Positions 13,652-57,861 of a stretch of DNA of 64,000 nucleotides are shown piece after piece; within the stretch, counting starts at the first letter, position 1; each line of letters begins with the position of its first letter. Below the pieces are notes generated by a model. The model was not told the origin of the DNA. It made no database searches and saw only the letters and a program-made list of their open reading frames with translations. The translations under genes and the position numbers were made by a program. Source of the stretch: Eledone cirrhosa (Eukaryota); assembly GCA_964016885.1 (NCBI GenBank), contig OZ024742.1, forward strand, positions 156,364,001-156,428,000, given 5' to 3'.

Positions 13652-14588
13652 GGATATATATATATATGTACGTATGGATTCACCGAAGATTTATTATACG
13701 AAATTTCATTTCTCATTATAAAATATGTTTGGTGAATCCATACGTACATATATATATGTGTGCATGTATGTATATATACATACATACTACTGTACTTCTG
13801 TATACATATAGGTATGTACATATACATACTTATATTTCAGTAACAGCCGTACTAAGACTGAGAAATGAAATTTCGTTTCATTTTTTTCCGTTTATCGTTT
13901 TCGGTACCCCGGCCGATTAACTCCCTCGATATGCAAACTAGGCTGCTCAGCCGTTAATATGCATAAGGAAAGTATATACTTTCAGACGTTCAACCATCTG
14001 GCAGGAAGGTACACGTTGCTGACGATAGCTGATAAGCTTGAAACTAGTACATCGTTCCTTTGTCAGTGTTGAACAAATGAGCTACGATGGTTGCTAGACA
14101 CTGTACGGCTTAAGTCGGGATGTTTGTTTACAAACACACCGAGCATTACAATAAATGTTCGGTGAATCCATACCTAGATATATATATGTGTGTGCATCTA
14201 TGTATATATATATACATACTACTGTATGTCTCTATACATATATGTATGTAGGTATACATACATATATTTAAGTAACAGCCGTACTAAGAGTGAGATATTA
14301 AATTTCGTTTCATTTTTTCCGTTTATCGTTTTCGGTACTCCGGCCGATTAACTCACTCGATATGCAGATTAGGCTGCTCAGCCGTTCATATGCATAAGGA
14401 AAGTATATACTTTCAAACTTTCAAGCATCTGGTAGGAAGGTACACGTTGCTGACGATAGCTAATAAGCTTGAAACAAGTCAGTGTTGAACAATGAGCAAC
14501 GATGGTTGCTAGACACTGTACGGCTTAATTCGGGATGTTTGTTTACAAACACACCGAGCATTATAGTAAATGTTCGCTGAATCCATAC

Positions 14589-14649
<61 letters not shown>

Positions 14650-27904: not shown

Positions 27905-28393
27905 TTATATATGTAGGAGGTGAGTTTTATTGTAGTACATTAAAGCAATGCAGATATCGGATAAGAAGCACTCTACAGTTTGTAGGACTGGAGTATACAT
28001 AATATATAAGATCAAAAGATGGTTAAAGGAGTTCCATGTATTTTATTAGGCGCATTTCAAAAACAAACATCATCATGCAATAATATTTGCGTTTTCATCA
28101 GATAAAACAGGAGGACATGATATGAAGGCTAAACAACACTTGGGGATAGTGCAGTTTTAAACACAAGTTTTTGTTAGCCTTCATATCATGTCCTCCTGTT
28201 TTATCTGATGAAAACACAAATATTATTGCATGATGATGTTTGTTTTCGAAATGCGCATAATAAAATACACGGAACTCCTTTAACCATCTTTTGATCTTAT
28301 ATATTATGTATACTCCAGTCCTACAAACTGTAGAGTGCTTCTTATCCGATATCTGCATTGCTTTATTGTACTACAATAAAACTCACCTCCTAC

Positions 28394-28400
<7 letters not shown>
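27905..28400. mobile_element. Inverted pair (~230-bp arms) of a pLTR-like element, each arm with a hammerhead
   Basis: 27905-28137 is the reverse complement of 28171-28400. HHRs at 28199-28265 (+) and 28041-28107 (-). Confidence 0.9.
28199..28265 (+). ncRNA. Type I hammerhead ribozyme motif, core intact
   Basis: TTTTAT-CTGATGA-[AAACACAAATATTATT GCAT GATGATGTTTGTTTTC]-GAAA-TGCGCA-TA-ATAAAA. Predicted cleavage after 28259. Confidence 0.88.
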
Positions 28401-28480
<80 letters not shown>

Positions 28481-28504
28481 TACATATACATACATATATA
28501 TATA

Positions 28505-29260
28505 TATACATATATACACATATACGCAACACACACACACAGAAATAAATATCTAAAAATAAAAAAAGGTGGGTATGTAAAGGGTAAGGTGGAAAGTAGG
28601 GGTAAATAAGGGAAATAAATGACATAGGAAAAGGTTTAAATATAAGGGGAGATTAGGGAGAAAAAGAATATAAGTGTATAGACACAGGACAGGTATAAAA
28701 TCAGGTGTTATGCACATGTCGCTTCTTTTAAACACTCCCTTAAAAGAACAGCAACGGCTCTTGCAAATACGGTGTTGGAATTCAAGGATAGAAACATCCC
28801 GTACTCTATTGATTAGTCTATTTGAGACCATTCGAGGGAGTACCAAAGGGGCACAAAGAATTGGTCTTTGTGTACACTGAAGAAATTTAGGATTTTACAA
28901 AACTTTAAAGCCACTTCAACTTGCCTGAACTCCTAGACCGATATCTTCAGATGTTGTCCTCACCTGAAATCACATCTGATCTGTAACTGGATTGACATTC
29001 CTACGATAACTCAACCACCTTGTACTTCTTCTCTGCTCTCTACGCCTTACATCCACAACGATTTTTTTACCTTCTGAACTCCCTTTCTGAACTCTTATAT
29101 TTGTTTTCTCCCTTATCTCCCCTTATATTTAAACCTTTTCCCATGTCATTTATTTTCCTTATTTACCCTTCTTTTTAACTTACCCTTTACATACTCACCT
29201 TTTTTATTTTTAGATATATTTATTTCTCTGTGTGTGTGTGTGTGCGTGTGTGTGCGTTGC

Positions 29261-29278
<18 letters not shown>
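28505..29278. repeat. Element with ~150-bp terminal inverted repeats (28505-28665 / 29100-29278)
   Basis: TCTAAAAATAAAAAAAGGTG...AAAAGGTTTAAATATAAGGGGAGAT recurs reverse-complemented. Confidence 0.85.
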
Positions 29279-29312
<34 letters not shown>

Positions 29313-29320
<8 letters not shown>

Positions 29321-31045
29321 GATCGAGTATCGAAAAATCGGCGCACGAGTTCACGATAAACGAAATTCGATATGAGCGGCAGAGGGCTCAATAATTCAGA
29401 TGAATCAGAGCTATAACTATCGTTAAAATACCGTCACATATAGAACAAGTCTACAATCAACCATACGATTTAAAATCGATAAAGGAAGATTCGGGCCAAA
29501 CAGATAAAAAATATCAATAAAACAATACGTCAATAATTTAAATGAATGTAAAATCATACCCGGACCCACTAGACAGGTGTTAAATCTAGCTTCATGGGTT
29601 TCTGTAAATCCTTAGACTGTACTCTATCAGCTCACATATAAATATAAAAGCCTACTAGAGCAAGTGGAACGGAGGTTTACGTTATCAACGAGTTTTTTCC
29701 TGGCGGCAGAGGAGCCAACTACCAGTGAAAAACGCACATGGCATTAGACAAGGGAGATGACCCCTATATCCGCGAAAACAATTCGAGTGAATGTGGAAAT
29801 ACACATATCGAATTAGAGTGCTCAATAGACATGTTAAAATAAAACAAAAGCTATTCATCACTCAATAGAATCGACAAAAAATGAGCAATAAAATTAACTG
29901 GTGGATAGCTATGTCCAGAGCTAAATATATTAGAAAGATCGAGTATCGAAAAATCGGCGCACGAGTTCACGATAAACGAAATTCGATATGAGCGGCAGAG
30001 GGCTCAATAATTCAGATGAATCAGAGCTATAACTATCGTTAAAATACCGTCACATATAGAACAAGTCTACAATCAACCATACGATTTAAAATCGATAAAG
30101 GAAGATTCGGGCCAAACAGATAAAAAATATCAATAAAACAATACGTCAATAATTTAAATGAATGTAAAATCATACCCGGACCCACTAGACAGGTGTTAAA
30201 TCTAGCTTCATGGGTTTCTGTAAATCCTTAGACTGTACTCTATCAGCTCACATATAAATATAAAAGCCTACTAGAGCAAGTGGAACGGAGGTTTACGTTA
30301 TCAACGAGTTTTTTCCTGTCGGCAGAGGAGCCAACTACCAGTGAAAAACGCACATGGCATTAGACAAGGGAGATGACCCCTATATCCGCGAAAACAATTC
30401 GAGTGAATGTGGAAATACACATATCGAATTAGAGTGCTCAATAGACATGTTAAAATAAAACAAAAGCTATTCATCACTCAATAGAATCGACAAAAAATGA
30501 GCAATAAAATTAACTGGTGGATAGCTATGTCCAGAGCTAAATATATTATAAAGATCGAGTATCGAAAAATCGGCGCACGAGTTCACGATAAACGAAATTC
30601 GATATGAGCGGCAGAGGGCTCAATAATTCAGATGAATCAGAGCTATAACTATCGTTAAAATACCGTCACATATAGAACAAGTCTACAATCAACCATACGA
30701 TTTAAAATCGATAAAGGAAGATTCGGGCCAAACAGATAAAAAATATCAATAAAACAATACGTCAATAATTTAAATGAATGTAAAATCATACCCGGACCCA
30801 CTAGACAGGTGTTAAATCTAGCTTCATGGGTTTCTGTAAATCCTTAGACTGTACTCTATCAGCTCACATATAAATATAAAAGCCTACTAGAGCAAGTGGA
30901 ACGGAGGTTTACGTTATCAACGAGATTTTTCCTGTCGGCAGAGGAGCCAACTACCAGTGAAAAACGCACATGGCATTAGACAAGGGAGATGACCCCTATA
31001 TCCGCGAAAACAATTCGAGTGAATGTGGAAATACACATATCGAAT
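29313..31045 (-). mobile_element. 616-bp tandem repeat, 2.8 near-identical units, one large hammerhead per unit (retrozyme-like family C)
   Basis: GATCGAGTATCG at 29321, 29937 and 30553. HHRs at 29558-29693, 30174-30309 and 30790-30925. Confidence 0.9.
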
Positions 31046-31149
31046 ATATATATATATATGTGTATGTATATGTATTTATATATATCTGTATGTATATGTA
31101 TGTGTGTATATAATTGTATTTTATATGCTTCTGTTGTATTTGTGTCTGC

Positions 31150-31181
<32 letters not shown>

Positions 31182-31184
<3 letters not shown>

Positions 31185-32125
31185 CGAATTCCAAACGTGA
31201 CCATCCCCACTGAAAGTTTTCGTGAAATAGTATTTTCTAGAATATACAGAGCATTTGAAGTTTTTCCAAATTGAAGGATGAGTATTTTAAACTATATTTT
31301 ATCATGAGTTGAGGCACTCATGATTTTTCACTGGATTTCACTAAATTCTGTTGGATGAATCTATATCCTGATTCTTTTTCAATTATTTTTTCCCACATCT
31401 TACGTTAACTATTTTCCCATTTTCACGCTATAGTCACTTATATATTATAGAATACTGTTCGCTTCTTGCTACAATCATTTCTATATTTTTCATTTATATT
31501 TATACTCGGATTTCTTTCATAGAATGCTATTTGTGACTAATCCCGGTCTTTTTAAAAAAATAACCGCGATAATATTGCTTTTTGCTGAACTCCTTATTGC
31601 AAGTTTTTTTTCGGAATGTGTTTGACTGTTGTTTCATGTAAACAAACATTCGTCTCATTCTGACGTCACCAGCCCCGTTTCCGCATGTGCGTTTTGTTTT
31701 CATAATCACGCATGATGTGGAACTAGCCTGCTTTTAAATTCCCTTTTTGGCATATTATGATCAGTGAGATTTTGGATATCGTGTTGAGCTCTGCTGAGGA
31801 TCGGATTCCAACCGTGACCATCCCCACTGAAAGTTTTCGTAAAATAGTCTGTTCAAGACTATACAGAGCATTTGTAGTTTTTCCAAATTGAAGGATGAGT
31901 ATTTTAAACTTTATTTTATCATGAGTGAAGGCTCAATTGATTTTTTCCCTGAATTTCACTAAATTCTGTTGGATGAATTTATATCCTGATCCTTTTTGAC
32001 TTGAGTTTGAATTATTTTTCCCACATCTTACGTTAACTATTTTCCCATGTTGACGCTATAGTCACTTATATATTATGGAATACTCTTGGCTTCTTGCCAC
32101 AATCATTTCTATACTTTTCATTTAT
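31182..32125 (+). mobile_element. 617-bp-period repeat (1.5 units) with hammerhead motif at 31788-31869 (family D)
   Basis: CGTGACCATCCCCACTGAAAG occurs twice, 617 bp apart. GCTCTG-CTGAGGA...(G/A)AAA-TAGTCT..AGACTA-TA-CAGAGC. Third partial copy at 56451-56730. Confidence 0.82.
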
Positions 32126-32140
32126 ATATATATATATATA

Positions 32141-32249
32141 AACGGAGAAAATAAAACGAAATTTCATTTCTCAATCTTAGTACGGCTGTTACTTAAATAT
32201 AAGTATGTATACGTACATACATATTTGTATACAGACGTACAGTAGCATG

Positions 32250-32329
<80 letters not shown>

Positions 32330-32372
32330 CATACATGCACACTTATTTATATGTACGTATGGATTCACCGAA
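32141..32372 (-). mobile_element. Partial family B unit abutting the truncated 3' end of a PLE
   Basis: Reverse complement of the family B GGTGAATCCATACG...TAACAGCCGTACTAAG segment. Confidence 0.85.
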
Positions 32373-35281
32373 CGACGTCCTCCCGTGTAAGAGTTGGCTC
32401 TGGACACTAAGCTCCAAGTGAGATCATAGGTAATATTGTAATCCTTGAGGTCCCTGATGAGGCCCGAAAGTGTTGTGGCGTGACGCCGGGCCGGGTTGCG
32501 GAAGGTATGTCTGTGTTGCTATAGCCGTGTCTTGAAGTCGCATGCGGTTAATCCTATATAATCTTTGTTGGAGCTGTCCGTCCTCACGTTGCACTAGTAG
32601 ATCACGTTACGATATCTGCATCTGTTGTCGAGGGGCCAAATGGATCCATCAGGGCAGTTGCACCTCCTGGTCGGCTCTCCACTGCTATTTAGGTTATTTC
32701 TTCCATAGGGGGTTGAGTTTATTGTTGTTAGAGGAGACGATGTATTGTGCAAAGTTTGGTGTGGTTCTGTAGGATAGTTTCGTGGTATTTTTGTTAATTA
32801 TGTTGTGGTAGCGGTGTTGTAGTGGGAAGTGTTTTTCGATGAGCCTAAAGAAGATTTTCCCAATAGGAGTTGTCACCTCGGCGTTGAGGGGCGGATTGAA
32901 CCATATTACATTACGTGAGCGGCAGTGTCGCCTGCTGGCTCCGCTAATGGAAGCTGGACAGTAGGATATTTCCTCCCGGAAACCACTCCGCTTGAGGGCC
33001 TGGTTGTAATAAGGCGCATGTTCCTCGAATATCTTCTCATTAGCGGACAAACGAGATATGCGGAGGGAGATGTTTTTAACCAGGTTATTGGTGATGTTCC
33101 TAGGATGGTTTGACCTGCGGTGGATGTAGTGCAGATTGTCGTTGGGTTTCCTGTATGGGTAGTACAGATCATTATCGAGGTCAAGATTAACGTCCAGCAA
33201 GTTTACTCGGGTCAGGGACGTTTGTAGGGTTATTTTAAATCCCCAGTCGCGGAATAAGCTGATTAATTGTTTACGGTCTCGTTCTGTACTACTGAGGTTG
33301 TACCCTTTAAGGGTAAGGAGCCCATCATCTCGGTATAATCCACCGCCGAATGCAGGAAATGTATCGGTGTGTTTAACTAGTAGGAATAATCCTATAAGAT
33401 ATGTGACCTCAGCCGAATCCTTCGCGCCCATGCTGACTTCGAAGGGTGAGTCGGGAGCTCTTTTTATCCATTTGGAGTTGTCGAAGAGTAGGACTGTGTT
33501 CCTGGCGTGGAGGATGATGTTTCTTTCCTGGTCGGTGATGGGCGCAAGTGTTTCGGCAAATTCCAAGGCAGCCGTAAGTAGCGGTAAGGTAATTGTAGCA
33601 TGTCAAACTGGATGAATGTTGTGTCTCGTTTGTCCTCCATATTGCTGAACCATGAGATTACTTCCTGGGTGTTGACCCATAGGCTAAGTCTGGCGTGTTG
33701 CTTAACTTTTGGTATAACGCGGTCCAGGATTTTTTTGCTGTTTCTCCCTATGTCAGACTTCGTTGGGTTTATAAGCCTGATAGAAGGTTTACGGTAGAAA
33801 TCGTATTTGTGGTCCTTCAGTGTGAAGTAGGGTGTCCGTGGGTCTAAGGGTTCCGTACGGTCGGCGACCCCGAGGCAGGAGGTAATTTGTTGTCCATCTC
33901 GATTTATGTCCTCGATGCAGGAGTGGTTAGCCTTTTTATAGGTGGAGTTTAGGCTGCTCCTGATAAGTGTGTGGTATCTGTCGGGGTTGACGAAATAGAG
34001 GTTACCAGTTTTATCCGAGTGCTCCATGATGTCATTGGTGTTATCATACTTTGTTAAGTTGCTAATGTTCTTGACCAGTTGGAAAAGGTCATTCTCGAAG
34101 GATGAGAGAATAGGGTTCGGAGGGGGAGATTTGTAGGTATTAAATCCGAATCTCTCCTTAGTACCGATTGTCGAAATATATGTCGTAGAAAAAAGTGCTC
34201 CATCTATGTCTTTTCGCAAAGAGGTCGATTTTTTGCGTGAGCATCCGAAGGTAAAGTTTTTTCGGTGGAATTGGGTTGTTCTTGGTGGAGAAGTCGATGT
34301 TGTGTTTTCGCATGGTGCGGGTGAAATAACTTGTGCTTAGCGGAAAAGTCTGGATAGGGCGTGGTAGGGTCGTAAAGTGCTCTATTACGGGAATAGGAGC
34401 TAGATAACGAAGGAAATATGGTAAGGAACCAGATGGACCATAACGCACCAACGTACTCAATACTTAGGATAGTAGAGTGGGTAATAGGAACGAGTAGGAC
34501 CCCGACGGCTGAGCTCAAGCCGTTTCGACGGCTAATTCTGGACTAAATGAAAATGTTTATCGTCGTATATGAATAGCCGAGCTTCTCAGGGGGTAATTCC
34601 TTATATGGTAAAAGTGATTGTCACAAGGATTGGTCAAAAGTTTGTTGTTGAGACACATAATACTATCATGGCAATTTGTGGAGGGAAGGGGTAGCTGAAC
34701 CTGCCAGTAGAAGAACGGTGGAGAGGGGGTGGAGGAAACCTAGTCGTGCGTTGATAGTGCCAACTACAGCAGGGCAAGAGGTCAAGGAACTGTACTAGAG
34801 AGGGGGAGGAAGTCGAAACAATAAGTAAAACAATATGGGGTAAATATATAGAAGAATACCGAGAATGTTAAAAAACAATTAAATATTTAAAAAAAAAAAA
34901 TTTCTGGTTACTATTCCCTAACGGCAGCCATCAAGTCTCTCACTGCTACTGCTAGACTATAGAGAGTTGACTAGGTGGGACGGAATTATAATGAGACCCT
35001 TCTAAGAGGTAGTAGTAATCAACCGAGTATATCTTACGGTGACGGGTCACCAAGTGGGGGCGCCAAAATACTAAAGAAACTACCACGAAAAAATAAATCA
35101 GAGTCTCGAGACTAATACGAAATAATTTTGACCAAGCCTTGTGACAATCACTTTTATCATATATGGAATTAACCCCTGGGAAGCTGGGCTATTCATATAC
35201 CAGGATAAAAATATTCATTTAGTCCAGAATTAGCCGTCGAAACGGCTTGAGCTCAGCCGTCGGGTTCCTACTCGTTCCTAT
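32373..35281 (-). mobile_element. Naiad-like PLE, frameshifted (coding ~32375-34320), with 5' pLTR ~34483-34640 and inverted copy ~35126-35281
   Basis: YFTLKDHK..F.RKPSIRLINPTKSDIG, FIQFD, PFEVSMGAKDSAEV, GGLYRDDGLL, YRKPND, VIWFNPP, RCNC...VIY...DYIG. Confidence 0.94.
34500..34593 (-). ncRNA. Hammerhead motif in pLTR (C3/A8 mismatch in this copy)
   Basis: CCCC-CTGAGAA-..CGGCTATTC...GAATTAGCCG..-GAAA-CGGCT-TGAGCTC-AGCCG-TC-GGGG. Inverted, more mutated copy at 35173-35264. Confidence 0.78.
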
Positions 35282-35297
35282 ATATATATATAAATAT

Positions 35298-35715
35298 ATA
35301 TACATACTAGTGTACGTCTGTATACATATATGTATGTACGTATACATACTTATATTTAAGTAACAGCCGTACTAAGAGTGAGAAATGAAATTTCGTTTCA
35401 TTTTTTCCGTTTATCGTTTTCGGTACCCTGGGCGATTAACTCACTCGATATGCAAATTAGGCTGCTCAGCCGTTAATATGCATAAGGAAAGTATATACAT
35501 TCAGACGTTCAACCATCTGGCAGGAAGGTATACGTTGCTGACGATAGCTAATACGCTGGTAACTAGCACAGCGTTCCTTTGTCAGTGTTGAACAAATGAG
35601 CAACGATGGTTGTTAGACACTGTACGGCTTAATTCGGGATGTTGGTTTGCAAAAACACCGAGCATTATAATAAATGTTCGGTGAATCCATACGTACATGT
35701 ATATATATGTGTGCA

Positions 35716-35771
<56 letters not shown>

Positions 35772-36156
35772 CTACAGTACGTCTGTATACATATATGTAT
35801 GTTCGTATACATACGTGTAGTTAAGTAACAGCCGTACTAAGATTTAGAAATGAAATTTCGTTTCATTTTTTCCGTTTATCGTTTACGGTACCCCGGCCGA
35901 TTAACTCATTTGATATGCAAATTAGGCTGGTCAGCCGTTAATATGCATAAGGAAAGTATATACTTTCAGACGTTCAACCATCTGTCTGGAAGGTATGCGT
36001 TGCTAACGATAGCTAATAAGCTTGAAACTAGAACAGCGTTCATTTGTCAGTGTTGAACAAATGAGGAACGATGGTTGCTAGACACTGTTCGGCTTAATCC
36101 GGGTTGTTTGTTTACAAACACACCGAGCATTATAATAAATGTTCGTAAATCCATAC

Positions 36157-36193
<37 letters not shown>

Positions 36194-36197
36194 CATG

Positions 36198-36233
<36 letters not shown>

Positions 36234-36747
36234 CTACTGTACGTCTGTATACATATATGAATGTACGTATACATACGTATATTTAAGTAAAAGCCTTACT
36301 AACAGTGGCAAATGAAATTTCGTTTCATTTTTTTCCGTTTATCGTTTTCGGTACCCCGGCCGATTAACTCACTCGATATGCATATTAGGCTGCTCAGCCG
36401 TTAATATGCATAAGGAAAGTATATACTTTCAGACGTTCAACCATCTGGCAGGAAGGTATAAGTTGCTGACGATAGCTAATAAGCTTGAAACTAGTGCAGC
36501 ATTCCTTTGTCAGTGTTGAACAAATGAGCAACGATGGTTGCTAGACACTGTACGGCTTAATTCGGGATGTTTGTTTACAAACACACCGAGCATTATAATA
36601 AATGTTCGGTGAATTCATACGTACATATACATATATATGTGTGCATGTATGTATATATATATATACATGCTACTGTACGTCTGTATACATATATACATCT
36701 ACGTATACATCCTTATATTTAAGTAACAGCCGTACTAAGAGTGAGAA
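35298..36747 (+). mobile_element. Family B tandem array, about 3 units (465/462/436 bp), hammerheads each point-mutated
   Basis: Unit marker at 35361, 35826, 36288 and 36724. Cores near 35538 (GTAA for GAAA), 36003 (CTAACGA) and 36466 (GTG triplet). Confidence 0.9.
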
Positions 36748-46137: not shown

Positions 46138-46660
46138 CCTACATTTAAATAATACACATAGGGATACAAGTATAGTCCGACCGTATGTCATTGTGGTTCA
46201 ATGGCAAGTTAATAAATTAACAAGCCAGAACGTATAAAATCAGGGGAAAGCAAATAAAGAAAAAAAATGAAAATAAATTTCCAAAAATTCCCTGTACTTA
46301 CTATATGTGCCTTTACCGCGATTTCAGATCCCAAACAAATAGATAATCCAAGCGGAGTTCCACTGAATAAGAGATCCTCGTCAGAAGGCTTTTCGCCCTC
46401 GGAGAATATAAAACTCCCGAGTTCAAATTACAAACTGGCGCCATACAAAACTGCCCCAGAATGAGAGCAAATGAATGATGAAACAATTTTGTCTAGTACC
46501 GTGTGCAAAGACTGAAAGCAAGATGGACAGTTCAATCTCTTGCTACTAAAAATAGCAGCCGTTCAAATGACCAAAGATTTCTCTAAAGGGGCATATATAG
46601 TAAGTAGAGTGAATTTGTTGATATTAATTAACATTTTTTTTCTTTATTTGTTTTCCCTTG

Positions 46661-47585: not shown

Positions 47586-47647
<62 letters not shown>

Positions 47648-47650
<3 letters not shown>

Positions 47651-47700
47651 AGTATGTATGTATACATACATACATATATGTATACAGACGTACAGTAGCA

Positions 47701-47742
<42 letters not shown>

Positions 47743-48145
47743 TATACATACAGGTACACATATATATATGTACGTATCAGTTTAGCGAACGTTTATTATA
47801 ACGCCCGCTTTGTCCGTTTGTAAACAAGCGAACAGCCTGATTTATGCCATACGATGTTAAGGCAACCACGTCACCTTTTTGTTCAACACTGACACAGGAA
47901 CGATGTACTAGTTTCAAGCTTGTGAGCTATCATCAGCACCGTATACCCTTCTGCCAGATAGTTGAACGTTCGAAAGTATACACTTTCCTTATGAAAATTA
48001 ACGGCTGAGCAGCCTAATTTGCATATCGAGTGAGTTCAGTCGGCCAGGCGTACCGACAACGATAAGTTGTAATATAATGAAACGAAATTTCATTTCTCAC
48101 TCTTAGTACGGCACTTACTTAAATGTAAGTATGTATGTATACGTA
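47648..48145 (-). mobile_element. Diverged family B unit with intact hammerhead at 47900-47942
   Basis: Minus strand reads ACGGTG-CTGATGA-TAGC-TCACAA-GCTT-GAAA-CTAG-TA-CATCGT. Confidence 0.9.
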
Positions 48146-48310
48146 CAATTTGGCCCAAACGTGCGTCATTTTCAAACTCGTGTCTACGGCGCCCTCTATA
48201 ACAGAAAAAAAACTGACTAAAAAATCATATTTAAGGCACACATTGGGAGAGCCAGAAAGAGAGAGATATTCCGTTATACAGAGAAAGATACAATGTAAGT
48301 GTTAGATATT

Positions 48311-49898: not shown

Positions 49899-50607
49899 TA
49901 AAAGGGGTTTGATTGGTGTTATGGACTCTACCAACCAAATATTCAAGAACAAAGAGTAAAGAGAGTAAAGAGCAAAAGCAGGGGACAATAAGTCTAATTT
50001 TTTTTTTTGGGGGGGGGGTCCTTGTTTACAAGCTGTGGTCATATTCGTTCCCGGGAGTCGAGCGGTTAGTGGAGCCATAGATGGGGTGGCATCGAAAGTA
50101 GGGTGCAGAGCACAAAGCACAGACACGATAGGTATTCCTTTGACCAGACCATGAGAAGTAGTAAAACCAGGAGATCATTCTCAAGATCTCAACAGAGACT
50201 ACCAACAAGGAATGTGGAAACAAAACGTAGAATAACCAGATCACTCTCAAGATCTCAACAGAGATTGCCCACAAGAAACTGGACGAAAAAACGATCTAAA
50301 CCTGAAAGCAAACCTAGGTCATTTTCCCAGATTGTTAAAAATAATGCTAACAGGAAGAAAAATAATATACAGAATACCAAAAATAGGACAAAATACATAA
50401 CGAAACCAAATATAATATCACGACCAAAAGTTCATCAACGAACACCAACAGGAATATAAATCCTGAACAGAGAAAATTTCATTTTTTAACGTCAGGACAA
50501 CAAAAACCGGAAACAGAAAAACTCCAGGAGGAAACATACCCAAAACAGCTGTACACGTAGATCCTAAAATAATTAATTTATCTAAAAGAGATCTTGACAA
50601 TGATGAA

Positions 50608-52797
50608 ATGCAAATTCTGTCAAAAGGACTGAAATTCACACCGACTCCAACAATCAACCACCAAGAACTGAAGGAGGATACCCAAGAATTCTGTCGAAAA
50701 TTACGTCTTGTAGAATTCTTCGCTGATAAAAATAATGAGAGTGATGAATCACTAGTAAAGAATCAATCAAATTTCACTCCGCCAAAAGGAAGAAATATCT
50801 ATCTCGACCAATACATTGACATCCTGTCTAAATTTCCTCTTAGACATAATACTAATGTTAGGCCAAACATTAACAAATCAGAAATATTTGCACTTAAACG
50901 TATACAAAATGATAAAACAATAATAATTAAACAAGCAGATAAAGGGGGTGCAGTTGTTATAATGGATACTGAATACTACAAGGATTTGGTTGAGGAACAA
51001 CTGAAAGACACAACATTCTATCATGAAATACCGTCAAATATAGACCACAACATCATGAAGAAGATCAACAACCTGGCTTCAAAATACCACAACTCATTTA
51101 CTGATAAGGAAAGAGACTACATCACCAATTCTGAGCCGAAACCCAGCAACCTGTATGGCCTACCGAAAGTTCACAAGTCAAAAGAAATACAACTGGCAGT
51201 AAGAGAACAAAACAGTGAGTACATTAAATTATTACACCCAAAAGACTTAAAACTTAGACCTATTATAGCTGGTCCAACACGCCCCACTCACCGTCTAAGC
51301 AATTTTGTTGACATTATTTTGAAACCACTATGTATTCACATACCCAGTTTCATCCGGGATGATATCGACTTCCTGTCCCATCTTCCCAAAACCACGGAAA
51401 CGAATTCACTTCTACTCAGTTTTGATGTGGTAAGCCTTTACACCAACATTACACATGATTTAGGAATAAAGGCGGTTAAATACTGGATGGAAAAACACAG
51501 AGAAGTGATTCCCATTAGATTCACAGCGCCATTTATATTAGACGCAGTTAAACTTATTCTGGAAAACAACACTTTCTTCTTCAATGGAAAGAATTACATC
51601 CAAATTAGAGGCACAGCGATGGGAACGAAGTTTGCTCCCGTTTACGCGAACTCTGTAATGGGATACTTAGAACAACAACTCTACCAAGAAATAGAGGAAA
51701 ACTATAGTACTGACTTTAGAAAGTACATTGAAAAATCTTGGAAGAGATACCTTGACGAATGTTTCATCATCTGGACAGAATCTCTAGATACTCTGGATGA
51801 GTTCAATATCCTCCTGAATAACCTACACCCATCTCTCCAATTCACAAAAGAGATGAGTAGGACCAAATTACCATTCCTAGATATAATGATAATCAAAAAC
51901 GACATCACCATTACCACGGATATATATTATAAACACACAGACACCCATCAATATCTGAATTTTAAGTCGTGCCATCCACCTCATACAAAACGCAACATCC
52001 CATACTGCCTAGCCAGAATAATTTGTACCATTGTAGAAGATACGAATACCAGGTACAAACGCCTAACAGAACTAAGAGAATTTTTGCTCAAACAAAAATA
52101 CCCATCTCTACTTATAGAAAATGGCATACAGCGGGCTATAAAAATACCTATACAACAACTTAGAACAACCCACGGAAGAAGAAACCAAGAACTGGTCATA
52201 CCATTTATAATGACACACAACCCATGTCACCATAATATATTCAACACTGCCAAAGCAAACCTACCGATCATTGCTCAAAGTAATGAATTAAAAGGAGGCT
52301 TAATCACAGATCGATCTTTGACTCTTAGTAAAAGACAGCCAAAAAAGTTGAAGCAATTGCTAACAAAAGCAAAGTTTGACCTTAACAACAAAGACCAATC
52401 ATTCACTGTATCTAAATGCAATGATAATCGATGCGGCACATGTCAATCCATAAACGCCGGTCAATATATGAAAACAAAAACTGGAAAAATATTCCCAAAT
52501 GCAAATATGAACTGCAAAAGCAGAAATCTAATTTACTGCATTAAATGCCCGAATTGTGAAGAACTATATGTCGGTCAAACTGGAAATGCACTATCGGAAC
52601 GTGCACGGGTACACTGTCAACAAATAAGAGACCCAAATGTCCGTCAGATACCCCTAAGCGGCCACCTGGCAACATGTGGTCAGGGAATATTAAAAATATT
52701 CCCATTCTACAAATTACACAGCCCAAGTGAAATCAAGAGACAAATCAAAGAAAAGAATTTTATTGATGAATTCAAACCCAAGCTAAATGAACAATAA
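50608..52797 (+). CDS. PLE reverse transcriptase + GIY-YIG endonuclease (729 aa, uninterrupted; YLDE instead of YLDD)
   Basis: LSKGLKFTP, IKQADKGG, LYGLPKVHK, RPIIAG, FDVVSLYTNI, GTAMGT..AP.YAN, RYLDE, LPFLD, CNDNRCGTC, LIYCIKC...LYVGQT. Confidence 0.95.
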   Translation: MQILSKGLKFTPTPTINHQELKEDTQEFCRKLRLVEFFADKNNESDESLVKNQSNFTPPKGRNIYLDQYIDILSKFPLRHNTNVRPNINKSEIFALKRIQNDKTIIIKQADKGGAVVIMDTEYYKDLVEEQLKDTTFYHEIPSNIDHNIMKKINNLASKYHNSFTDKERDYITNSEPKPSNLYGLPKVHKSKEIQLAVREQNSEYIKLLHPKDLKLRPIIAGPTRPTHRLSNFVDIILKPLCIHIPSFIRDDIDFLSHLPKTTETNSLLLSFDVVSLYTNITHDLGIKAVKYWMEKHREVIPIRFTAPFILDAVKLILENNTFFFNGKNYIQIRGTAMGTKFAPVYANSVMGYLEQQLYQEIEENYSTDFRKYIEKSWKRYLDECFIIWTESLDTLDEFNILLNNLHPSLQFTKEMSRTKLPFLDIMIIKNDITITTDIYYKHTDTHQYLNFKSCHPPHTKRNIPYCLARIICTIVEDTNTRYKRLTELREFLLKQKYPSLLIENGIQRAIKIPIQQLRTTHGRRNQELVIPFIMTHNPCHHNIFNTAKANLPIIAQSNELKGGLITDRSLTLSKRQPKKLKQLLTKAKFDLNNKDQSFTVSKCNDNRCGTCQSINAGQYMKTKTGKIFPNANMNCKSRNLIYCIKCPNCEELYVGQTGNALSERARVHCQQIRDPNVRQIPLSGHLATCGQGILKIFPFYKLHSPSEIKRQIKEKNFIDEFKPKLNEQ

Positions 52798-53171
52798 TAA
52801 CGCCTAGGGGTATTACTTCTACTACCACTATGACTACGACCACTAACAACAACAAAAACAACAATAATAATAATAATAAAAGTGATGTTGATGGTGATGA
52901 TTAATAGAAAATGCTATTTTCATCATTTCAAAAAGCAAAACAATTGATACGTTGGGTATGACTATTGGTCGTTAGCATGCTCAACCAGCCGTGACGCTTA
53001 AACCAATCAGCTGTAGTAATTCAGTGAAACTACACACTGATTGGTCGAAATACAGTTTACAGGGCTTTGCATTCTGGAGCCACTTTTCTCTGTATAAAAT
53101 GTATAAAAGGTAGGAAATTTACCCATCTCATTACAGTTGAAAATTGCAAACTCGACTGTCACCACATATCA

Positions 53172-53210
53172 TGAACCTGAAGATTGCGAAAGCATGAACG
53201 TACTTGTTCA
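53172..53210 (+). ncRNA. Minimal hammerhead motif in 3' pLTR, one core substitution
   Basis: TGAAC-CTGAAGA-T-TGC-GAAA-GCA-T-GAAC-GTAC-TT-GTTCA. GAAC in place of GAAA; helix I is perfect. Confidence 0.72.
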
Positions 53211-53324
53211 ATTAACACTTAGAATTTAATATTCTATCATACTATTTCATTATAATACCATTATATATATTTTAAAGGATTGTAAATAAAACGAGTAAAT
53301 CAGACAAAGTTTGAATTCCTCTTA

Positions 53325-53396
<72 letters not shown>

Positions 53397-57352: not shown

Positions 57353-57770
57353 GGAAAAAATGAAACGAAATTTCATTTCCCACTCTTAGTACGGTTGTTA
57401 CTTAAATATAAGTATCGTTTTCGGTGCACCCGGCCGATTAACCCACTCGATATGCAAATTGGGCTACTCAGCCGTTAATATGCATAAGGTAAGTATATAC
57501 GTTCAACTATCTGGCAGGAAGGTATACGTTGCTGACGATAGCTAATAAGCTTGAAACTAGTACAGCGTTCCTTTGTCAGTGTTGAACAAACGAGCAACGA
57601 TGGTTGCTAGACACTACGGCTTAATACGGAATGTTTGTTTACAAACACACCGAGCATTATAATAAATATTGGGTGAATCCATACGTACATATGTATAGGT
57701 GTGCATGTATGTATATATATATACATAGTACTGTACGTCTGTATACATATATGTATGTACGTGTACATAC
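57350..57770 (+). mobile_element. Family B unit with inverted 5' segment and intact hammerhead at 57526-57568
   Basis: ACGTTG-CTGACGA-TAGC-TAATAA-GCTT-GAAA-CTAG-TA-CAGCGT. 57350-57413 is family B sequence in reverse. Confidence 0.9.
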
Positions 57771-57792
57771 TTTTATATATATATATATATAT

Positions 57793-57861
<69 letters not shown>

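Follow-up and report, generated by a model that had tools for sequence, protein, structure and literature searches.

A putative non-LTR retrozyme family with a large type I hammerhead motif in (TA)n repeats of Eledone cirrhosa

As described in the portions of the literature cited here, metazoan non-LTR retrozymes are head-to-tail non-coding units with one type I hammerhead each and a GC content below 50%, and they occur as dispersed monomers to multimers together with Penelope-like elements (PLEs) (PMC7229834; bioRxiv 10.64898/2026.07.22.740005). The latter report, in its cited part, gives retrozyme consensus lengths of 51–972 bp, matches 24 of 57 Xenopus retrozyme families to a known transposable element, and records in vitro cleavage by one of nine predicted retrozyme dimers. 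PLEs, including Naiad and Neptune, show 5′ truncation and a (TA)n or microsatellite target, and a fixed 3′ end with 5′ truncation is the polarity of target-primed reverse transcription known for them (PMC8557442, cited part). The minimal hammerheads of PLEs, including the U3-A8 variant of Cercyon, have a helix I of 4–5 bp and an extra nucleotide after A9, and lie shortly upstream of the 3′ end (PMC4209133, cited part). Among the natural hammerheads covered by the cited part of PMC3088659, about 40% of representatives have a stem I–II pseudoknot, the 3-8 pair covaries to U3-A8, and a U10.1·U11.1 mismatch is tolerated. The copying of retrozymes and PLEs is presented as a proposal only, and the in vivo role of the hammerhead is stated to be unclear, in the cited parts of PMC8557442 and PMC4209133.

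The element analysed here lies in a window of 64,000 nucleotides (the whole stretch of DNA that was analysed). It shares the layout, GC content, dispersal and PLE co-occurrence of retrozymes, the truncation and target of PLEs, the U3-A8 core, short helix I, extra nucleotide and position of PLE hammerheads, and the pseudoknot and U3-A8 covariation of natural hammerheads. Unlike the retrozymes in the cited reports, it has a ribozyme of ~136 nt with a helix II region of 74–81 nt, a stable extended helix III, a 1×1 mismatch at the base of helix II, a pseudoknot, and a variable 3-8 pair; the cited portions of those reports were not found to describe its strict (TA)n targeting, the mapping of a fixed end, or 5′ ends located at the cut. 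Unlike the PLE hammerheads in the cited part of PMC4209133, it comes without an ORF and with a full rather than minimal palindromic helix III, and unlike PLEs it shows no inverted second arm in 99 loci and no parent PLE was found. Three features of the present element were not found in the cited part of PMC3088659: a predicted pseudoknot between the 5′ flank of helix I and an internal loop in a long helix II, a C·A or A·A mismatch at the base, and whole lineages with U3·G8 or C3·A8.

On the features tested, the element is a metazoan non-LTR retrozyme, and it appears to work as one. This agrees with the initial annotation of non-coding tandem units, each with a type I hammerhead, spread in the manner of PLEs. 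That annotation also presented the larger unit and the U3-A8 pair as novelties. The unit falls within the published size range given above, and U3-A8 has already been published (PMC4209133; PMC3088659, both in their cited parts); what is new here is the long helix II, the base mismatch, the pseudoknot, the drifting 3-8 pair and the cleavage footprint. We place at about 75% the probability of the whole explanation, a non-LTR retrozyme insertion whose hammerhead cuts in the cell and which is copied into (TA)n by a borrowed Penelope-like enzyme.

The 616-bp array and its hammerhead motif

The array and its landmarks are as follows.
29313..31045, minus strand (RNA sense): whole insertion, 2.82 tandem units of 616 bp
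29272..29314, no strand: (TA)n target tract on the fixed-end side
29309..29318, minus strand: fixed 3′ end of the element, putative reverse-transcription priming site
29313..29562, minus strand: 250-nt segment from the cleavage site to the priming site
31040..31060, no strand: variable 5′ truncation point, at unit position 501 of the third unit

At a period of 616 over 29313-31045, 1114 of 1117 compared positions matched, versus 299–348 at other periods tested. The unit is non-coding (longest stop-free stretch 62 codons; GC 36.7%), so the earlier description of 2.8 near-identical non-coding units stands. Each side of the array is bordered by a (TA)n tract; the fixed end shares an AU-rich microhomology with the (TA)n target, and the truncation point is joined to (TA)n through an AT microhomology. 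Many genomic copies consist of about the 250-nt piece alone. A simple pattern search for Pol III A and B boxes gave none, and a promoter was not found.

Directly left of the array lies a 210-nt inverted repeat (84%; window 28480-28677 and 29091-29298), and the array sits inside its (TG)n(TA)n tail. This neighbour was read by eye as a Hydra-type PLE end, and tblastn gave no confirmation. PLEs have a 5′ UTR intron. By eye, the stretch that immediately follows the priming site (window 29900-29928 on the minus strand, unit ~590-616) looks like a 3′ splice site, and pyrimidines followed by YAG were seen at this place in several families.

The hammerhead motif occurs in each unit, and copy 1 is resolved into its parts below.
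29558..29693, minus strand: type I hammerhead, copy 1
30174..30309, minus strand: hammerhead, copy 2
about 30790..30925, minus strand: hammerhead, copy 3, with the outer pair of helix I lost
29693-29689/29562-29558, minus strand: helix I of copy 1, ACUCG/CGGGU
29688-29682, minus strand: core U3-A9 of copy 1, UUGAUAA
C29681·A29603, minus strand: mismatch at the base of helix II of copy 1
G29680/C29604, minus strand: start of helix II of copy 1, with a 77-nt insert
29602-29600, minus strand: G12-A14 of copy 1
29599-29564, minus strand: helix III of copy 1
29562..29563, minus strand: predicted cleavage site after GUC, C17 being 29563

Helix I, the core, GAAA, helix III and GUC lie on the minus strand as first annotated, and the predicted cut falls after unit position 250, counting from 29313. 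The helices and core of that layout were kept, and two letters that it had overlooked were added, a C (29681) after A9 and an A (29603) before G12. Helix II drawn without this mismatch had to be replaced by one whose base is C·A followed by G-C. At about 136 nt, with its long helix II region, the ribozyme is larger than usual, as had been proposed, and the prediction that CUGANGA searches with short loops would miss it was borne out; Rfam misses it too.

The three-way junction is the minimum-energy fold of the window motif, with a z-score of -1.34, and 22 of 200 shuffled sequences fold as well. An Rfam scan of 28000-32500 at E≤10 gave 46 matches, none to a hammerhead family. Because of this z-score and the lack of an Rfam hammerhead, the single window copy by itself does not go beyond chance; the evidence from the family does. 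The same two results would suit a match to a hammerhead arising by chance in an ordinary satellite or a DNA-level repeat, a reading that we consider highly improbable given the 2,896 dispersed polar insertions, the covariation, the core conservation and the ends at the cut site described below; the insertion polarity and the covariation refute it.

Conservation of the fold, the pseudoknot and the 3-8 pair

Core conservation was measured in 55 copies picked by their 3′ end and not by the ribozyme. At U4, G5, A6, A9, G12, A13, A14, A15.1 and U16.1, one of 495 cells deviated (0.2%), versus 11.2% elsewhere; the copies are related, not independent, and 57% of non-core columns were likewise nearly invariant. 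N7 takes all four bases, and the extra A before G12 is invariant. The copies carry the hammerhead core set (U4 G5 A6, A9, G12 A13 A14, A15.1-U16.1 and H17, with N7 free).

Over 42 distinct copies, an alignment that leaves out 22 copies chosen for a helix III mismatch, 94.8% of cells were paired in the proposed structure compared with 33–48% in slid controls, and 26 cells carried double changes versus 7.9 in shuffles. The helices of the initial annotation are thus kept family-wide. The base of helix III shows no covariation in this alignment because it does not vary. In a second set of 31 clusters at 88% identity, in which helix I was partly required by the extraction pattern, pairs 2–5 of helix II were paired in 100 of 124 cases versus 77.6 with swapped strands. 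Six of the 22 mismatch copies are among these clusters and cause most helix III mismatches there. Both sets contain three helices around a junction, open at helix I. The base of helix II, whose flanking letters were part of the search pattern, is A·A in 27 of 31 clusters and C·A in the other four, followed by G-C, and the canonical G10.1-C11.1 pair next to the core is absent. Published active precedents exist, in the portions of the literature used here, for a U·U mismatch at this place.

The following strands of a predicted pseudoknot were located in copy 1.
29697..29700, minus strand: 5′ strand GGAA, upstream of helix I and outside the 136-nt motif first annotated
29666..29669, minus strand: 3′ strand UUCC, in the internal loop of helix II

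The strand just 5′ of helix I pairs with a loop ~9 pairs up helix II, by 4 bp in the window and 4–8 bp elsewhere. Across the 31 clusters, duplexes with their own partner had -6.65 kcal/mol versus -4.90±0.34 kcal/mol for swapped partners (0 of 5000 permutations). For the second pair, 14 of 29 clusters have G-C and 13 have A-U, with the register fitted so that the strands pair. By covariation, the helix I–helix II tertiary contact is a predicted pseudoknot that the initial annotation had overlooked. Since stem I–II pseudoknots are needed for fast cleavage in other hammerheads (PMC3088659, cited part), self-cleavage of the 616-nt unit as a monomer is a fair prediction.

In nearest-neighbour calculations, which include no pseudoknot or tertiary energy, the share of the active fold was 0.51 for the isolated window motif, 0.002 for the whole unit and 0.008 as the median over the 42 copies. 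In the window unit, the predicted fold is prevented by an anti-core helix that lies 26–32 nt after the cut. Since the units scored (17 of 18 tried) do not share the same competing partners, it was rejected as a conserved off-switch. An alternative helix from RNAalifold, with an insert strand over G12, covaries but makes up <0.1% of the ensemble; in 38 of 42 copies the hammerhead is the more stable of the two, and this helix was also rejected as a switch. A search for relatives with a short helix II gave 27 matches versus 8 in the control, mostly deleted copies or chance.

The statement that U3-A8 preserves the 3-8 tertiary pair holds for the window copy, where the pair is Watson-Crick, and is incomplete for the family, in which sister lineages are U3·G8 and C3·A8. 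The 55 copies have U-A (34) or U·G (21), and the 31 clusters have U-A (14), C·A (8), U·G (6) or C-G (3). In the largely open-access literature searched, no natural U3·G8 or C3·A8 lineage was found. A mutational scan of a type III hammerhead recorded rescue of the 3-8 pair by the G-C swap alone (PMC9901934, cited part). The extra letters and the long helix II recur in distant families with the canonical CUGANGA (C3-G8), whose helix III measures 6 to ~90 nt. The core register is fixed because these C3-G8 relatives share the architecture and align in the register first annotated, which rules out a shifted register with an insertion after A6. As far as the sequences indicate, the non-Watson-Crick pairs lower the description of the core as canonical, not the view that the motif works like a hammerhead. 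Among individual loci, L225, L230, L234 and L244 on contig C1 form a related family with the canonical C3-G8 core and a helix III of ~90 nt; L236 and L247 combine the long helix II with a 6-nt helix III.

Dispersal, target and 5′ ends of the family

The host genome is 3.0 Gb and rich in microsatellites. A search with the unit gave 582 candidates, and in the 40 scored there were 137 matches of 98–100% identity on many contigs; all 137 began at query position 1–3, and the opposite end varied. A pattern for the fixed end abutting TA counted at least 2,896 insertions (control 1), a lower bound that supplies the genomic copy count proposed in the initial annotation. Further patterns, each with 0 in the control, counted ribozyme copies whose N7 is not U (1,332), members of older subfamilies (1,775) and copies carrying C3 (171). 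The older units are 69–85% identical to the window unit and have the same end and target, and family units overall are 69–100% alike. The family is dispersed and old and was still spreading recently; the label "young" fits the window subfamily, not the family with its relatives down to 69% identity. The family was also found in sequencing runs labelled as four organisms; the kind and origin of the runs are unrecorded, so no species range is claimed.

The fixed end sits 250 nt 3′ of the cut in the RNA sense. We mapped 99 of the first 100 of the 2,896 matches, all on contig C1, five of them censored. The insertions (n=99) measured ≤250 nt in 31 cases, 251–616 nt in 24 and more than one unit in 44, and 25 span two cut sites. 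The 5′ end joins TA repeats in 80 of 94, and such repeats hide target-site duplications. Two-armed inverted insertions, reported for other families, were rejected: matches on both strands occurred at two of the 99 loci and look like separate neighbouring copies.

Among the 85 insertions reaching unit position 230, 17 end at 230–250, versus 2.1 expected (P=1e-10); no other 21-nt interval in the mapped sample holds more than six ends. Sixteen of these 17 lie at 235–243, just before the 3′ strand of helix I (unit 246–250), and most of them use a weak TA microhomology that falls short of the cut by 13 nt. By nearest-neighbour assignment, which is fallible because it was wrong for locus L362, the pile-up comprises 9 of 53 U-A and 8 of 36 U·G copies. 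It is rarer in later units (3/45 vs 17/85; Fisher P=0.07).

A genome-wide pattern for TA-joined ends at 249–256 returned 23 rows representing 18 loci, which were read by eye. Ends fell at 249 (three), 250 (eight), 251/252 (two) and 256 (five). The seven at 251/252 and 256 are at A microhomologies, and position 250 is a G without microhomology; no end was clearly at 251, 253 or 254. Eight of 18 exactly on the predicted cut corresponds to P=2e-4 for a position named beforehand. Five of these eight are in the first unit and three in the second. Two second-unit copies (L360 and L362) show U3·G8 in their own core; of the other exact-end copies, three are nearest to U3·G8 and three to U3-A8 copies, one of the latter three belonging with the window subfamily. 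The exact-end copy L315 is 99.6% identical to the window subfamily, and L144 ends exactly at the cut in its third unit. For the C3·A8 lineage, 30 of 196 matches were examined for the footprint, in a sample mixed with the U3-A8 sister lineage. No comparable analysis of ribozyme cleavage from genomic ends was found in the literature searched.

The position of the 235–243 cluster could be explained by reverse transcriptase stalling at helix I of a fold that is kept as a structure without cutting. The frequency of non-Watson-Crick 3-8 pairs and the low predicted active-fold share would also suit this reading. It accounts poorly for the sharp peak at 250, a position without microhomology at the distal end of helix I, and for catalytic positions that are invariant while N7 is free, and we regard it as improbable. 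Cutting by the hammerhead at the 29563/29562 site in vivo is very likely, and U3·G8 copies apparently carry the same cleavage footprint.

The family offers a defined 616-nt template. Its priming site, target and cut site are mapped, and the genomic ends indicate that the ribozyme is in use. We tentatively propose, at slightly less than even confidence, that pseudoknot-braced hammerheads passed through C-G, C·A, U-A and U·G at 3-8 and still cut in vivo with U3·G8, and that the 5′ ends form a fossil record, at nucleotide resolution, both of cleavage and of a Penelope-type reverse transcriptase that starts from one fixed internal point of a small RNA circle. If U3·G8 ribozymes are active, the core rule of every hammerhead search pattern would be too strict, a pseudoknot could buffer core mismatches, and many animal hammerheads would therefore be missed at present.

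Probable partner enzyme and template

The unit has no ORF for reverse transcriptase (RT) and GIY-YIG and is not an autonomous PLE. The host genome contains 10,596 GIY-YIG candidates; in 30 of these loci no sequence homology of the element to a PLE was found, nor was any PLE ORF or protein match found joined to an element. In three of the 30 loci, a minimal hammerhead with a U·U mismatch at the base of helix II stands 171–203 nt before (TA)n, and two of the three are U3-A8; these GIY-YIG elements thereby match the family in layout and in its peculiarities. The window itself contains one PLE ORF.
50467-53330, plus strand: PLE ORF of 776 aa, RT with C-terminal GIY-YIG
After the ORF come a minimal hammerhead in degenerate form, near 53175-53215, and a (TA)n end; a relative (L359) has an intact motif. 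Copying by a borrowed PLE reverse transcriptase/endonuclease is likely; the suggested link is drawn from layout, target and the cited parts of the literature (PMC7229834; bioRxiv 10.64898/2026.07.22.740005), not from descent.

In the proposed mechanism, arrays would be transcribed on the minus strand, and the ribozyme, braced by the 4–8-bp pseudoknot instead of the usual loop 1–loop 2 contact, would cut after GUC. Monomers would probably be ligated to circles. Reverse transcription would be primed by a nicked (TA)n strand at the AU-rich site inside the unit, 250 nt away from the cut on its 3′ side. From a linear RNA that has been cut, the enzyme would run off after 250 nt, and from a partly cut multimer after 250 nt plus whole units; the cDNA end would usually be shortened by about 13 nt, as far as a TA microhomology. 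A circular template would let the enzyme roll on and write tandem arrays like that in the window.

We compared 31 arrays (165 units) and found 22 whole-array haplotypes, with 7 of 246 array-by-variant cells mosaic. Six arrays carry a private change in every unit, L209 and L220 have 16 identical units, and some long arrays, L208 and the window array among them, have variants shared by a subset of units. The homogeneity of arrays suggests that each step passes through a single unit, for which a circle is the simplest explanation; expansion in place can make arrays uniform as well. The exact ends in second and third units count against a clean rolling circle because such a circle does not predict them. 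To explain them, a linear multimer that was cut in part or a blocking scar from ligation is required, and those in the second unit point to linear multimers too.

These ends (three of the eight in the second unit, and L144 in the third), together with the subset-shared variants of L208 and the window array, are what would be expected if the ribozyme were active and no circle were involved, the templates being linear multimeric transcripts, cut in part and primed at an internal site or at a (UA)n tail from read-through, with long arrays lengthening later by unequal crossing-over. This course is set against the 22 haplotypes with few mosaic cells, the private changes in every unit of six arrays, the 16 identical units of L209 and L220, and the lower frequency of 230–250 stops in later units; we consider it unlikely, if less so than stalling. 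A circle as the main template of long arrays is the reading we somewhat favour. For 29313-29928, sequencing run X7, whose kind is unrecorded, has a single closed 645-nt contig (615+30) of one haplotype at a depth of 12.8 with no other variant. It was rejected as evidence of an RNA circle, since tandem DNA would give the same.

A second (TA)n-embedded repeat family occurs in the window at 13714-14633, 35279-36710, 47641-48150 and 57413-57815. Its units of ~431–465 bp are 74–82% alike and contain a minimal C3-G8 hammerhead with U·U at the base of helix II, in six motif copies (14019, 14450, 36003, 36466, 47912 and 57532); it is probably another retrozyme. A further hammerhead-like motif with a canonical core and a 52-nt helix II region lies on the minus strand at 46309-46389.

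The longest young arrays sampled (L209, L219, L220, L221 and L207) belong to one 615-bp subfamily. Its pseudoknot looks the weakest by eye, with about 3 pairs, and a slower ribozyme in this subfamily might favour long copies.
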